Virus record (IMG/VR): IMGVR_UViG_3300022747_000017
DNA length: 64,000 nucleotides
Source of the DNA: a virus
Reading direction: 5' to 3' (one strand)
The notes beneath the pieces were generated by a model, which saw only the letters and a list, made by a program, of their open reading frames with translations, was not told where the DNA came from and ran no database searches. Below are positions 1,879 to 14,680 of the stretch, in pieces (position 1 is the first letter of the stretch; each line of letters opens with the position of its first letter). The position numbers were made by a program, and so were the translations under genes.

Positions 1879-2152
1879 AATTTTTTACAGTTGTCGGAAT
1901 ATGGTTTTGCTTGATGTTTGCATTGGGCACAATCGATGTAGTGGATTTTCACGTTTGCCTTAAATCACCGGGAGCCTGCTCAAAATGACAAAAGATAACA
2001 TGTGGTGTATTGTGCTTGGTTTCTTTTTGTGTTCTATTCTTAACACCATGCCGTTTGCTGACGCTGAAAAGTTTCGTCAAGCAAAACAGACATGTGAAAA
2101 GTCTCTGCCCCGTGATCAACACTGTAAAGTAGTTGGGGTTCCGGAATAAGAT

Positions 2153-2434
2153 ATGATCTCAGAAGTCACTGAGCTATCTGTAACCACACACGAATATCAT
2201 GTTACTTGGCACACATGGCAACACGGCAATCAAAGTGGTTTTTGGCGTAGTCATCTAGAGGAAAAATATCACACAGATAACGAACGTGAGCTGCACACCA
2301 TGATAGCTGCCCGACTTAACCAATCATTTCAGCACATGACTGTACGATGCACGTACACAAAAGTAGTACAAACTATTTACGCTCCGCAACAGCTTGGTCC
2401 CGAAGATCTTACTATTTTGCTGCTAAGGCAATAA
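2153..2434 (+). CDS. Hypothetical protein
   Basis: 93-aa ORF ending in a hydrophobic helix DLTILLLRQ reminiscent of the cassette C-termini. Confidence 0.6.
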   Translation: MISEVTELSVTTHEYHVTWHTWQHGNQSGFWRSHLEEKYHTDNERELHTMIAARLNQSFQHMTVRCTYTKVVQTIYAPQQLGPEDLTILLLRQ

Positions 2435-2531
2435 TATTCGTTGTATTAGTGCAACAAATGGCAATTATTTTGGGCAAATTGCCCAAAAGTGCTGTACAAT
2501 TAAGGCATTGTTAAACAAACAGGAGTTTTAA

Positions 2532-3005
2532 ATGCCTTTTCAAAAGTACACAGACGCACTGGCTTTGATGGATGCTACTATTGCAGTCAATGATGCAGTA
2601 ATTGCAGCCAACGGTGAGTACAGTACATGGTACTATAGTGAACAAGGCACAGAACTCAGTGCCCCTATTTGTACTGCATGGGACAATCTGTATACTTTTG
2701 TACATGATAATTTCCCGGTTCCAGTTAGCTTTGGAACTTCTCCTTACTCTGACCCAGATAAAGAAAAGTATGCAGCGGATGTAGATGAAATGGTTGCGAT
2801 GTTTGGTAAAGATCGTGCTACCTTGGAAGAAGAATTGCGTAAGATTCCTCCGGTTATTGCAGAAGTGGCTTTTCCGGTGTACATTGCACGTCACCTCTTG
2901 TGGACTCAACGAGTGGCAGTCAGCCCAAGTCACTTGACTACGTTTGACGAATTTCACAATCGTTATGGTTACATGATTATTTGCGGTGCCAGTAACCGCA
3001 AATAA
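2532..3005 (+). CDS. Hypothetical protein
   Basis: 157-aa ORF with AGGAG RBS. Confidence 0.75.
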   Translation: MPFQKYTDALALMDATIAVNDAVIAANGEYSTWYYSEQGTELSAPICTAWDNLYTFVHDNFPVPVSFGTSPYSDPDKEKYAADVDEMVAMFGKDRATLEEELRKIPPVIAEVAFPVYIARHLLWTQRVAVSPSHLTTFDEFHNRYGYMIICGASNRK

Positions 3006-11210: not shown

Positions 11211-11284
11211 GCGCTAGAAACTGAATGGATAGTTGGAGCTTCTAAAACTCCGGGTAGCAGGTTCGATTCCTGTCTAGCGCACCA
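11211..11284 (+). tRNA. tRNA, best fit anticodon CUA (amber suppressor); Arg(UCU) is a poorer alternative
   Basis: GCGCTAG/CTAGCGC acceptor, encoded CCA, T-arm GCAGG-TTCGATT-CCTGT; anticodon stem GGAG/CTCC with C.A closing pair and loop TT-CTA-AA; 5-nt variable loop. Confidence 0.8.
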
Positions 11285-11404
11285 TAGTAGAGTACATTGT
11301 AAGCCGTTAGTGGTTGAGCCTGAACGAGCACACAGTATTCCTAGGATAGCTGGTCGCAGCCGAGGTAACGCTCATCGCCACATCCAATGTATTCTACTAT
11401 GGTG
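11280..11404 (+). ncRNA. Long-stem structured RNA in tRNA trailer (element 1)
   Basis: 20-bp inverted repeat CACCATAGTAGAGTACATTG / CAATGTATTCTACTATGGTG with internal stems. Confidence 0.55.
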
Positions 11405-11406
11405 AC

Positions 11407-11495
11407 TATATAGAAGTGCTTTGAAGGAGCAGACCGTCGCACAACTCCGCGGTAAGTGATAGTGGACTTAGCATGCAGCAGAGTACTTCAATATA
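11407..11495 (+). ncRNA. Long-stem structured RNA (element 2)
   Basis: TATATAGAAGTGCTTTG / CAGAGTACTTCAATATA arms enclosing two small hairpins. Confidence 0.5.
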
Positions 11496-11500
11496 ATCAA

Positions 11501-11748
11501 GCAGTAAAGGACAGCACGGTAAGGATGGCGCCCGTGGCGAAAGGAACTTGGTCTATAGGACCAAGGTAACGAGGAAACTCAAATTATCCCTAGCCTAAGT
11601 TACGATCATCCCTTCTGGTAGTCGGGAAAAAGTGCAAACGCGAAAGCGGTCAGTATAGGTTGGCAATGTATTGCATATTGAGTTATGCTTACGAAACCGT
11701 TGTAAAACTGGCGTGTAAGGAATGACCGGAACCCAAGACTGCCACTGC
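11501..11748 (+). ncRNA. Unassigned ~250-nt multi-hairpin RNA
   Basis: Closing stem GCAGT..GGACAG / CTGCC..ACTGC, GNRA hairpins GAG-GAAA-CTC and CGC-GAAA-GCG, CTTGGTC/GACCAAG stem, T tract after; no long ORF. Confidence 0.55.
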
Positions 11749-11758
11749 AATTTTTATT

Positions 11759-12040
11759 ATGGACTATCTACTACGCAATTCGTTAACAGAATCCGACATT
11801 GAGTTTCTGAATGAAACAACAATGGATTTTGAAATCGTTAACACCGACTGGTTCGCGCCCAAGGAAGGGTACGATAGTGGATGGTGCGATGGAGTAACAG
11901 GGCATCGTCTTATCACCCATCAAAATCGTGTAGTGTTCAGGAATGTTACTCCTGCACAGTACACATATCTTGAACTTCGATATCGTGAACGCCTAAATGA
12001 GTTGACAGACGGCCTTAAAGGCATATATAATATTACATAG
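11759..12040 (+). CDS. Hypothetical protein (distant cassette-like YLELRY motif)
   Basis: 93-aa ORF. Confidence 0.65.
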   Translation: MDYLLRNSLTESDIEFLNETTMDFEIVNTDWFAPKEGYDSGWCDGVTGHRLITHQNRVVFRNVTPAQYTYLELRYRERLNELTDGLKGIYNIT

Positions 12041-12062
12041 ACATTAACAAAGGAGAAATCAA

Positions 12063-12641
12063 ATGTCACTAACTCAATCCTAGATCAATTACCAATGTAA
12101 GGACTTAGTGTTCCATTTTAACAAAGGGCACCTTACAGATCCGACCATACCTATGTGGGTCATTAAAGCACATGGCGTGACGTTCTATGTGAACCACGTA
12201 ACAGCGGAAATTCCGTGGAGTACTAAGGAGACGCCAAACAACCCTAGTACCAAAGGTAGTATCAAATTCAAGCGATGTAAGCTGACTATTGATGCTGATA
12301 ACTGTGCAACGTTGTCAAAGTTGGGCATACTAGATCGTGGCTTGCCTACCCCGCACTTACCGTTTGATCGTATTATTGTTCCTGTATACAACGAGTTGGC
12401 TACAGCACTAGAAGACAATGAGTTCAAGCATAGCAAGATCAAGTATGTTGAGGGAGCATGTAGCAGCGAGTATTTAATTTGTGATATTACTGATCGAGAC
12501 GACATGCTGATGTTGGCACTCAAATATCCAAACAAATATCGCATACTGCAAGCCAATGAACCTTACTACAAGGATTACGACAGCAAACACAACAACCTTG
12601 TTATGCACGGCAACGAAGGATTCGACGATGACGACGAATAA
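12063..12641 (+). CDS. Hypothetical protein, possibly with in-frame TAG at codon 7 (alternative start GTG 12108)
   Basis: AAGGAG RBS + ATG 12063, TAG 12081-12083, then open in-frame into the 177-aa ORF. Confidence 0.6.
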
Positions 12642-12810
12642 GGTTCGTATATTTGTACCACATAAGGACTATGCATCTATATGGTCCTTTATCAGGGAAA
12701 ACAAAGTCAAACACTGGCCAATTGAACGAGGGTGGCAAGGTTACTTCTTTACAATTGAAGATGGGCCTGCTGCCACATTTTTATCACTCAAATACATACA
12801 CAATGAATAA
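12628..12810 (+). CDS. Small protein, LRW-cassette-like C-terminus (FLSLKY)
   Basis: YFFTIEDGPAATFLSLKY ending. Confidence 0.6.
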   Translation: MTTNKVRIFVPHKDYASIWSFIRENKVKHWPIERGWQGYFFTIEDGPAATFLSLKYIHNE

Positions 12811-13309
12811 AATTACAATTTATCTAGACATGGACGATGTCACAGCAGACTTTAAGGCCTATGCCAACAAGACTCTGGGCAAAAAGACCACAGACGAACG
12901 CTGGCCGCACGAGGACTGGATTCGTCTACGTGATAATCCTCATCTGTACAGGGACTTGGATAAAACTCCTGAAGCAGATGCACTGGTTGAATGCTGCCGT
13001 TATCTACGTACTAAACACGGATTCGATCTAAAGTTTCTAACTGCGGTGCCCCGGGGCAATGACTTTCATTGGGCATTCTACGACAAAGTAATGTGGGCTC
13101 AACAACACTTTCCCGACATTCCTGTTATGTTTGGACCGTTTAGTCATGATAAGCATGTGCACTGCTCGGATGGCGACATCTTAATTGATGACCGCACCAG
13201 CAACTGTGAAGAATGGCGCAAAGCCGGTGGCTTCGCAGTTCAACATCGCGGAGACTTGTCAAAGACTCTTAAAGAGTTAATGGACATATTGGACGAACAC
13301 TTCCAATAA
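12803..13309 (+). CDS. 5'(3')-deoxyribonucleotidase, HAD family
   Basis: IYLDMDDV motif I, FLTA, ILIDDR. Confidence 0.85.
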   Translation: MNKITIYLDMDDVTADFKAYANKTLGKKTTDERWPHEDWIRLRDNPHLYRDLDKTPEADALVECCRYLRTKHGFDLKFLTAVPRGNDFHWAFYDKVMWAQQHFPDIPVMFGPFSHDKHVHCSDGDILIDDRTSNCEEWRKAGGFAVQHRGDLSKTLKELMDILDEHFQ

Positions 13310-13796: not shown

Positions 13797-13834
13797 CCTT
13801 TGACTTGTTAGCAGGTATAACGTATAATAATGGT

Positions 13835-14680
13835 ATGAGAGTAAACGTAATTTCCGACCTTCACCTAGAGTTTTCAGACTTAGAACTGCCGGGTGGAGAA
13901 GTATTAATATTGTCAGGTGACGTATGCGAAGTCAAGCACGTTAAAGCCGAGTACGATGTAAACAACATACTTAATGAAGGCGGCCCCAGCACAGGCAACT
14001 TCAAACGTATGGATCGTTGGACTCGTTTCTTCCACGAAGAGTGCAGCAAGTACGAAAAGGTATTTTACGTAGCAGGCAACCATGAGCACTACGGATATAC
14101 GTTTCATAAAACAGTGCCACACCTAAAAGACATGCTGCCCAAGAACATTACTGTTTTGGAAAAAGAAGCGTGTGAATACAATGGAGTATTGTTTCTAGGC
14201 GGTACGTTATGGACTGACATGAATAACTTTGATCAGTTGACACTGTATCATATGAAAGGCATGATGAATGACTATCGTCAAGTTACCATGTTAAATGAAG
14301 CCAAGAGTGTGTATCACAGACTGGTTCCTGAGCATACAACTACCGAACACGTTAAAACAAAAGAACTGTTTAAATTTTACCTAGCTGAAAACAGAAGTAA
14401 ACAAAATTTACCAGTTGTTGTGTTGACACATCATGCTCCAAGCAAGTTGAGTACACATCCACACTATGCAGATGACACCATTATGAATGGTGCATACAGC
14501 AGCGATCTCAGCGAGTTTATTCTGGATAATCCTGAGATTCGAGTATGGACACATGGTCATACACATCATACGTTTGACTATAACATTGGAGACACTCGTA
14601 TCATTTGCAACCCACGTGGCTATGCAGGACACGAGCAACGCTCAAACGAATTCGATCCAACCTATGGATTTGATATTTAA
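13835..14680 (+). CDS. Calcineurin-like metallophosphoesterase
   Basis: ISDLHLE, LSGD, VAGNHEHY, THHAP, HGHTH; promoter TTGACT-N17-TATAAT with ATG 6 nt later. Confidence 0.9.
   Translation: MRVNVISDLHLEFSDLELPGGEVLILSGDVCEVKHVKAEYDVNNILNEGGPSTGNFKRMDRWTRFFHEECSKYEKVFYVAGNHEHYGYTFHKTVPHLKDMLPKNITVLEKEACEYNGVLFLGGTLWTDMNNFDQLTLYHMKGMMNDYRQVTMLNEAKSVYHRLVPEHTTTEHVKTKELFKFYLAENRSKQNLPVVVLTHHAPSKLSTHPHYADDTIMNGAYSSDLSEFILDNPEIRVWTHGHTHHTFDYNIGDTRIICNPRGYAGHEQRSNEFDPTYGFDI

Follow-up and report, generated by a model that had tools for sequence, protein, structure and literature searches.

What might a stop codon be doing as the seventh codon of an otherwise open phage gene, downstream of a phage tRNA whose anticodon matches it? 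The question is raised by a locus in a 64,000-nucleotide stretch of viral DNA, IMG/VR record IMGVR_UViG_3300022747_000017 (herein "the window", which denotes the whole 64 kb that were analysed). The gene concerned begins at position 12063, meets an in-frame TAG six codons later and continues to position 12641; we refer to it as the amber gene, and to the putative suppressor tRNA with anticodon CUA encoded upstream of it as tRNA(CUA). Overall, we suggest, with a probability of roughly 0.78, that translation of the amber gene is gated by the phage's own suppressor tRNA, which would read UAG at codon 7. Well over 100 related phages keep both the TAG and the tRNA(CUA), and the protein is very probably made only when the tRNA overrides the stop. 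That full-length expression depends on the phage suppressor tRNA had already been proposed in a reading of the window's letters (the original prediction), and this proposal now gains comparative support from the conservation of the TAG, of the coding sequence downstream, of the Shine-Dalgarno (SD) sequence with its ATG, and of the linked tRNA.

All elements of the locus lie on the plus strand. An SD sequence AAGGAG (12050-12055) is separated by a 7-nt spacer from the ATG at 12063, which opens the leader M-S-L-T-Q-S (ATG followed by TCA CTA ACT CAA TCC; 12063-12080). Codon 7 is the TAG (12081-12083), the next base being A. The codons ATC AAT TAC CAA TGT AAG GAC TTA then lead to a GTG (12108-12110), at which table-11 gene callers start the gene and which is not conserved as a start. 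A single frame runs from ATG 12063 through the TAG to a TAA at 12639-12641, and its translation with the TAG read through comprises 192 residues. The TAG and the GTG have a single ATG between them (12095), which stands in another frame and runs directly into a TAA, while an AAGGA (12099-12103) lies 4 nt 5' of GTG 12108. The tRNA(CUA) gene (11211-11284), found with ARAGORN and with the Rfam tRNA family RF00005, encodes its CCA end, has A73 as discriminator and ends 797 nt before the TAG. Direct reading of the sequence thus bears out the layout given in the original prediction, namely the AAGGAG-N7-ATG start, the TAG, the open frame with no in-frame ATG before the GTG, the second AAGGA, and the suppressor tRNA about 800 nt upstream.

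Conservation of the TAG was followed in two samples of IMG/VR loci. The first consisted of 80 loci fetched with the family alignment, 78 of which hold the motif F-H-F-N-K; the second, overlapping the first in part, consisted of 78 loci, 76 with the motif. TAG occupies the same alignment position in 77/78 motif-bearing loci of the first sample, as it does in the window, and TAA or TGA never takes its place; in the second sample, it is kept in 75/76. It is likewise present in all 79 entries of the locus alignment and in all 52 unique contexts free of indels. Two of three fragments of metagenome-assembled genomes from a genome collection hold it as well, the third, a single case, having neither a TAG nor a tRNA within its 1.9 kb. 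Among relatives, identities of the amber-gene protein to the query descend to ~48%. Recurrence of the same TAG at the same alignment position across both locus samples excludes chance, and the TAG is not the sequencing error that the original prediction had allowed for. The surroundings of the TAG are conserved too. It usually stands nine codons before F-H-F-N-K, and an in-frame ATG lies one to nine codons 5' of it; such an ATG exists in all 62 unique relatives, preceded by an SD sequence with a 5-8 nt spacer in 56 of them. The leader (1-9 codons including the ATG) is poorly conserved in its residues. The amber gene's own terminator is TAA or TGA in 79/79 entries and never TAG, and the base following the in-frame TAG is always A, the codon there being ATT in 60, ATC in 15 and ATA in 3 of the 79, but never ATG, GTG or TTG.

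Here, it is the codon and not an amino acid that is conserved, which makes the case for a functional TAG stronger. The original prediction had expected homologues to show a sense codon such as CAG at this position; this expectation failed, the DNA of the homologues carrying TAG itself. We sorted 121 database homologues by their state at the TAG position. Of these, 52 are called with Q, 42 start at a later position (GTG or ATG, often Met31), 14 start with M-L exactly at the TAG position, and 13 have a short leader that passes into a sense residue (A, T or N) at this position. The Q of the 52 proteins was considered as a genuine sense codon and rejected, because it matches TAG in the DNA loci codon for codon: the database sequence M-L-Q-I-E-Y, for example, corresponds to ATG TTA TAG ATT GAA TAT in a locus. 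Such Q entries thus represent TAG under code-15 gene calling and are not independent evidence. The sense variants, for example M-S-A-I-N-Y, run the leader straight into the body of the protein and include one NCBI table-11 call.

On a midpoint-rooted tree, computed rapidly by maximum likelihood on the sequence that follows the N-terminus, Q entries and shortened entries are interleaved, because different gene callers treat the same TAG state differently. The root has the TAG state on either side, and the exceptions group together: one well-supported clade of 16 takes in 12 of the 13 sense variants along with four ATG-start variants, while variants with ATG at the TAG position have at least three origins on the tree. 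The sense-codon clade is absent from the IMG/VR loci returned in either sample. The variety of replacements at the TAG position indicates that no particular amino acid is needed there and that the codon is kept because it is TAG. These results also matter for annotation, given that 42/121 homologues are shortened and 52/121 are called under code 15, wrongly suggesting recoded genomes.

The one locus with ATG instead of TAG in the family gene (L023) has a peculiarity of its own. Downstream of its tRNA(CUA) (2014-2091, plus strand), a pair of ATG-TTA-TAG-ATT-AAT starts (2234 and 2330) precedes a 122-residue open reading frame (ORF; region 2014-2707, plus strand) that belongs to phrog_34073, of no annotated function, and has no Pfam match. 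This ORF may be a second amber-gated gene. Its identification as the peptidyl-tRNA hydrolase PTH2 was considered and dropped, BLASTP giving no similarity.

The sequence directly after the TAG shows where the coding region begins. In the 52 unique contexts, the amino acids of codons +1 to +9 are kept (I, E/N, Y, x, C, K/R, D/E, L/V, V) and the third positions vary: Tyr is TAT in 33 and TAC in 16, Cys TGT in 45 and TGC in 5, Lys AAA in 26 and AAG in 18, and Asp GAC in 27 and GAT in 20. The segment between the TAG and the GTG is, judging by these synonymous changes, under protein-level selection, so that the conservation upstream of the GTG proposed earlier as a check is indeed found, right up to the TAG. 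A conserved in-frame stop with protein-level conservation directly after it is what characterises readthrough genes. The predicted structure points the same way. An AlphaFold2 model of the 93 residues after the TAG, made on a 62-sequence alignment, reaches a mean predicted local distance difference test (pLDDT) of 92.7 and a predicted template modelling score of 0.81; its first beta-strand comprises residues 2-12 and its first 10 residues have a pLDDT of 96. The N-terminal beta-rich domain thus modelled (12084-12362, plus strand) has its first strand beginning at the codon after the TAG, and a start at the GTG would remove most of this strand.

Such evidence leaves little room for the view that the real gene is the 177-aa ORF starting at GTG 12108 and that the upstream ATG-TAG is irrelevant or a decaying remnant. 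The Val codon at the position of the window's GTG is GTG in 30 of the 52 unique sequences, GTC in 14, GTT in 5 and GTA in 3, and hence other than GTG in 22/52; in 26/79 loci no ATG, GTG or TTG, and thus no canonical start, exists between the TAG and the nearly invariant Met31. An independent GTG start would also have to contend with selection on the TAG-GTG segment, with its place in the first strand of the predicted fold and with the upstream in-frame ATG conserved in all unique relatives. What favours it is the AAGGA 4 nt before the GTG, together with the 42/121 database homologues annotated from a GTG or later start; the interleaving of these shortened entries with TAG-bearing ones on the tree indicates a choice made in gene calling and not another gene structure. 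We therefore regard an independent start as hardly credible. The caveat to this effect in the original prediction stands insofar as an AAGGA-GTG is present in the window, but does not hold as an explanation for the family.

If the stop is conserved as a stop, the tRNA expected to read it should bear marks of selection as well. The window's tRNA(CUA) scores 49.9 bits against the Rfam tRNA model (gathering score 29). In an alignment of 56 tRNA(CUA) sequences, 15 of 18 stem pairs, distributed over all four stems, show compensatory changes on both sides; the anticodon is CTA in 56/56, and G1-C72, C2-G71 and A73 are invariant. Stem covariation and the invariant anticodon thus point to a selected, functional-looking tRNA. 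The label "tRNA-Pyl" assigned by ARAGORN reflects the anticodon alone. In the Rfam alignment the cloverleaf is an ordinary one, its variable region 5 nt long and its anticodon stem of 5 positions; a tRNA-Pyl would be expected to have a 3-nt variable loop, a 6-bp anticodon stem and a very short D-loop, and to go with pylS and pylBCD genes. ARAGORN places a same-strand tRNA(CUA) near the gene in 58 loci, and Infernal adds 9 loci that ARAGORN missed, all 9 with a YTCTAAA anticodon loop; the second locus sample agrees, and of the loci that allow a judgement almost all have the tRNA upstream on the gene's own strand. In 14 unique loci, the tRNA(CUA) ends 23-55 nt before the TAG with no promoter-like site between them. 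Such a gap fits only the SD sequence and the leader, and tRNA and mRNA must therefore share a transcript in these 14 loci. In the window's subclade the distance from tRNA to TAG is 0.8-1.8 kb. In the complete relatives, which measure 320-374 kb, the other tRNAs form one main array at a distance of about 105 kb or more, the suppressor standing alone beside the amber gene.

Two further observations concern the tRNA itself and its flank. The best match to the window's tRNA(CUA) among cultured phages is the "Sup-tRNA" of the Cronobacter jumbo phage GAP32, with 83% identity over 48 nt (JN882285.1, 293273-293347, corresponding to 1476-1550 on the plus strand of our locus L122). Four related loci have an Rfam "freshwater-2" RNA (RF02980, 68-78 bits) some 60 nt upstream of the tRNA(CUA) but encoded on the other strand; on this minus strand, it occupies 2570-2648 in L024, 241-319 in L027, 2481-2561 in L054 and 2479-2559 in L056.

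Cultured rhizobial phages supply a distant point of comparison. A tblastn search places the N-terminal domain in three of them: Rhizobium phage RHph_I1_18, Sinorhizobium phage Phosso and Agrobacterium phage Atu_ph07. In RHph_I1_18, a T4-like phage of 171 kb, the match falls into an unannotated gap between a methyltransferase gene and a tRNA annotated as tRNA-Pyl(cta). The gap holds an amber ORF of 82 codons with the TAG at codon 6 (MN988519.1, 11248-11000 on the minus strand, or 2483-2731 on the plus strand of locus L111). It reads M-S-E-F-M-TAG-N-E-S-C-R-E-V-I-F-H-F-N-K, so the TAG is placed as in the window's family relative to the motif, with the start of the annotated tRNA-Pyl(cta) lying 12 nt beyond the end of the ORF. 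Scanned in full, the RHph_I1_18 genome revealed no other credible amber-led ORF, other early-TAG candidates having been rejected for junk-like translations. RHph_I1_18 is, on this comparison of sequences, an independent and distant case of the pairing of TAG with tRNA(CUA). The Atu_ph07 and Phosso versions of the domain make up the C-terminal half of a protein of 173-176 residues whose N-terminal half is unmatched. The annotated ORFs of these two phages are continuous under table 11 and hence lack an in-frame TAG, and there is no annotated tRNA within 2.5 kb of the domain.

The codon after the TAG is also where another explanation has to be weighed, by which the mini-ORF ends at the UAG and ribosomes restart at the adjacent Ile codon, giving a protein from Ile8 without any suppression. 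AUU is a weak bacterial start codon, as seen in infC, and an Ile codon follows the stop directly in 78/79 entries. A short and poorly conserved leader would suit such a restart, as would the ATG that one group of relatives has at the TAG position, from which the leader residues appear dispensable. However, AUC and AUA are very poor starts, and the AAC that follows the TAG in RHph_I1_18 makes a restart there impossible. No usable start codon lies at the stop or overlaps it, as reinitiation would call for. The relatives without TAG read the leader into the body via a sense codon, which a restart does not account for. Nor does a restart give any reason for the exclusive use of TAG when these same genes end in TAA or TGA, or for the tight linkage to tRNA(CUA). 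Altogether, we find termination followed by reinitiation improbable and return to suppression of the UAG.

A phage-encoded tRNA(CUA) is typical of phages in which TAG has been recoded (PMC9523058, PMC13037316), and code 15 was picked by gene callers for many contigs with the amber gene. It could accordingly be asked whether TAG is a sense codon in many genes of this genome of ~350 kb, the amber gene being just one of them; our view of the genome covers 64 kb. The window contains genes for nicotinamide adenine dinucleotide (NAD) salvage enzymes, an ATP-dependent DNA ligase, a T4-type clamp loader and tail-fibre-like proteins, and its relatives are IMG/VR contigs of up to 374 kb, several of them 92-100% complete, with gp23-type capsid genes and 16-46 tRNAs. 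Gene content together with the size, capsid type and tRNA sets of the relatives identify a T4-like jumbo phage, although blastn of the region gave no DNA-level match to cultured phages. The coding fraction of the window is 0.836 whether table 11 is applied or TAG is taken for a sense codon. Table 11 leaves the late genes whole: the tail-fibre-like genes of 829 and 1085 aa in the window are uninterrupted, and so are the gp23-type capsid and large terminase (TerL) genes of five near-complete relatives. TAG terminates 11 of 121 crude ORF calls in the window, including some 6-7 plausible plus-strand genes.

We also scanned for an SD sequence and ATG followed within 12 codons by a stop and then a long ORF. 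The amber gene was the sole TAG case in the window, other early-TAG candidates having been rejected as out-of-frame overlaps, and in RHph_I1_18, whose genome is complete, the amber ORF is likewise the sole credible case. Early stops outside the family, counted in the flanks of the 80 loci, were TAG in 4, TGA in 6 and TAA in 3 cases, so that early TAG is no commoner there than the other stops, as against 72 unique cases in the family. Moreover, a randomly recoded codon would not hold one position and be absent from the other 185 codons in every relative. These phages are not recoded: they show neither many in-frame TAGs nor avoidance of TAG as a terminator, and share with code 15 the phage-encoded suppressor tRNA with anticodon CUA. 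Partial recoding thus seems to us very improbable. As for a second target in the window, the 93-aa gene upstream of the amber gene ends in TAG; it was considered and rejected, its relatives ending in TAA or TGA. In a close relative (L002, 2698-3040, plus strand), the TAG that terminates this 93-aa gene is in frame with the amber gene, and two readthrough events would fuse its product to the amber-gene protein.

How might the arrangement work? Ribosomes would start at the SD-ATG at 12063 and, at the UAG, either terminate, releasing a harmless peptide of 6 residues, or pass by means of the phage tRNA(CUA). Only passage would yield the 192-residue protein. Because the full protein would come only via suppression, its output would need both the mRNA and enough charged tRNA(CUA) to compete with release factor 1. 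This would amount to a translational AND-gate of one codon, a possible delay timer or read-out of the efficiency of UAG suppression. Where the tRNA is co-transcribed, output would depend on mRNA and tRNA from one transcript. With the stop placed so early, a failed passage would waste no more than a tiny peptide, an arrangement expected of a gate or a sensor. The amber gate may accordingly act as a timer, a leak filter or a feedback sensor. We infer that the tRNA(CUA) is expressed, charged and decodes UAG, and that the purpose is regulatory; the "timing switch or lock" of the original prediction has the same inferential standing.

Several points weigh against this interpretation or narrow it. 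A regulatory purpose is a design argument. In the window, a GTG with a weak SD sequence lies nine codons after the TAG, so that some N-truncated product may be possible without suppression. No tRNA(CUA) is found in four loci (L018, L179, L187 and L198) despite 4 kb of upstream flank. The window's gene has a putative promoter of its own, a sigma-70-type match TTGACA-18 nt-TATAAT with 12/12 consensus positions (12002-12031, plus strand), so co-transcription with the tRNA is not required here. This match falls within the 3'-terminal part of the 93-aa ORF upstream, some 20 nt ahead of the SD sequence of the amber gene, and the same site scores 12/12, 10/12 and 9/12 in the related loci L003, L001 and L004, respectively. 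As for the window's tRNA, its anticodon stem has a mismatch at position 31-39. The nearest paralogues of the tRNA(CUA), an Arg-UCU, an Arg-ACG and a CAT tRNA, are only ~73% identical; this comparison, made with 80 other tRNAs of three related genomes, gives no clear paralogue from which to assign the amino acid. Finally, a strong suppressor would extend the phage's own TAG-ended genes by 2-41 codons, which would be a cost.

What the gated protein does can be approached through its family and fold. The family has 849 database matches. The query has none in Pfam or PHROGs, nor by sequence profile in the PDB; ESM Atlas gave no usable match, and matches in BFVD were solely to uncharacterised small phage proteins. 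The full-length model (pLDDT 83.8) consists of the beta-rich N-domain, a ferredoxin-like C-domain and an acidic tail, the alpha/beta C-terminal part with the tail and the TAA terminator occupying 12363-12641 on the plus strand. Foldseek and VIA-align against the PDB returned noise-level rows only for the whole protein and for the N-domain. PDB fold matches of the C-domain are weak (Z <=4.7) and RRM/ACT-like; those of the N-domain (Z <=3.2) are at noise level and mostly OB-type nucleic-acid binders. Judging by the models, the N-domain appears to be a novel, beta-rich domain. Among 1.84 billion representative proteins, 141 relatives were found in three architectures: N-domain with C-domain, a stand-alone domain, and the domain at the C-terminus of a longer protein. 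None of the domain fusions in these 141 offered an informative partner.

Gene neighbourhoods give another kind of clue. Nine related loci encode a permuted transfer-messenger RNA (tmRNA) no more than 3 kb from the amber gene, and the window itself has a similar one at 9-422 on the plus strand, a permuted, two-piece tmRNA of betaproteobacterial type with the tag peptide ANDEQFALAA (ARAGORN; Rfam RF01850 and RF04321, 112 bits each). In Phosso, a PTH2 gene is found two genes upstream of the homologous domain. These neighbours hint at translation rescue. Keeping them in mind, one may suppose that the UAG is read through as described above and that the product has the tRNA, release factor 1 or the ribosome as its target, with the early UAG serving as the feedback sensor of a homeostat. 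A sensor codon at the very start of the gene, comparable to the in-frame UGA of prfB, would fit, as would the coupling of gene and tRNA across wide divergence and the OB-type character of most weak matches to the N-domain. Against this stand protein searches that gave no functional assignment, fold matches at noise level, a tmRNA adjacency limited to a minority of loci, and the domain versions of Atu_ph07 and Phosso, which occur without a TAG and without a nearby tRNA(CUA). We judge such a homeostat unlikely. A somewhat wider proposal, which we hold to be possible but still doubtful, is that a widespread clade of T4-like jumbo phages, and at least one cultured phage, RHph_I1_18, possess a self-contained natural amber gate. 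In it, a dedicated tRNA(CUA) would have as its chief conserved client a single early UAG of a neighbouring gene, in many cases on one transcript with it, and the gated product would act on termination, suppression or ribosome rescue, closing a feedback circuit by which the phage could sense or adjust how UAG is decoded in infected cells.

The remaining surroundings of the amber gene in the window can be described briefly. Between the tRNA(CUA) and the next gene, about 470 nt (11285-11750, plus strand) contain no credible ORF; this region opens with a long inverted repeat that takes in the 3' end of the tRNA, and no Rfam family scores above threshold in it. Downstream, the next gene probably starts at ATG 12625 (12625-12810, plus strand), overlapping by 17 nt the part encoding the acidic tail of the amber-gene protein. 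Beyond it come genes for an NT5C-type 5'-deoxyribonucleotidase (12803-13309) and a metallophosphoesterase (13805-14680). A metallophosphatase is also encoded 3' of the homologous gene in Atu_ph07 and Phosso.

It remains to compare this locus with known systems. Suppressor tRNAs are often reported in large phages with a standard code, and their targets are an open question. Standard-code jumbo phages with orphan suppressor tRNAs include Xanthomonas phage XacN1 (PMC5852040) and Ralstonia phage RsoM2USA (PMC8504454). The phages studied here resemble these two and GAP32 in being large, in having a big tRNA set with one or two tRNA(CUA), and in lacking genome-wide recoding. XacN1 has two CUA tRNAs; its authors tried in silico readthrough of the 18 TAG terminators and report that no target gene could be identified (PMC5852040). 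Unlike XacN1, in which we found no homologue of the amber gene, the present family offers a conserved target, with an N-terminal in-frame TAG in place of a terminator. The amber gene would thus give the suppressor tRNA a concrete and conserved client, and it directs attention to early in-frame TAGs instead of terminators.

Recoded crAss-like, Lak and other phages (code 15, TAG = Gln) carry suppressor tRNAs as well, and a timing role of UAG readthrough has been proposed for their lytic genes (PMC9523058, PMC7886860, PMC13037316). What they have in common with our case is a tRNA(CUA) of their own and proteins that need UAG readthrough. However, the in-frame TAGs of recoded phages are numerous and spread across a large number of mostly late genes, and these phages avoid ending genes with TAG, whereas here the code is standard and a single TAG is fixed at one position in one gene family. 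In a 2026 jumbo-phage survey, suppressor tRNAs come up in connection with recoded genomes alone, and our full-text literature searches gave no description of a conserved amber-interrupted gene with a suppressor tRNA in a standard-code phage. What appears to be new, and has strong support from the comparative data, is the probable reduction of suppressor-tRNA-dependent phage translation to one dedicated codon in a standard-code genome.

Bacterial genetics provides two further parallels. In Streptomyces, bldA encodes a tRNA-Leu(UAA) that gates TTA-containing regulatory genes and thereby a developmental programme. There, as would be the case here, a dedicated tRNA gates genes via a codon that is almost absent from other genes. 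Yet bldA reads a rare sense codon, whereas in the phages the codon is a stop, the competitor would be a release factor, and failure would mean termination and not stalling. In prfB, which encodes release factor 2, an early in-frame UGA is escaped by +1 frameshifting, and the product is the very release factor that reads UGA. Both prfB and the amber gene thus have an early in-frame stop in a conserved gene that would report termination against alternative decoding. They differ in that escape from the amber codon would be by a cognate suppressor tRNA, and any action of the amber gene's product on termination is conjectural. RHph_I1_18 is cultured and its gene currently unannotated, so direct testing is possible there.

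The logic proposed here is also that of circuits built by synthetic biologists. Engineered suppressor-tRNA circuits include a "leak dampener" feed-forward loop (PMC7969014) and AND logic (PMC11669171; PMC13276491). In these, as proposed for the amber gene, an early amber codon permits translation only when a suppressor tRNA is co-expressed. The synthetic gates are engineered, whereas the amber gene is a candidate natural example of such an amber-codon and suppressor-tRNA gate, a would-be counterpart maintained across a wide clade of phages.

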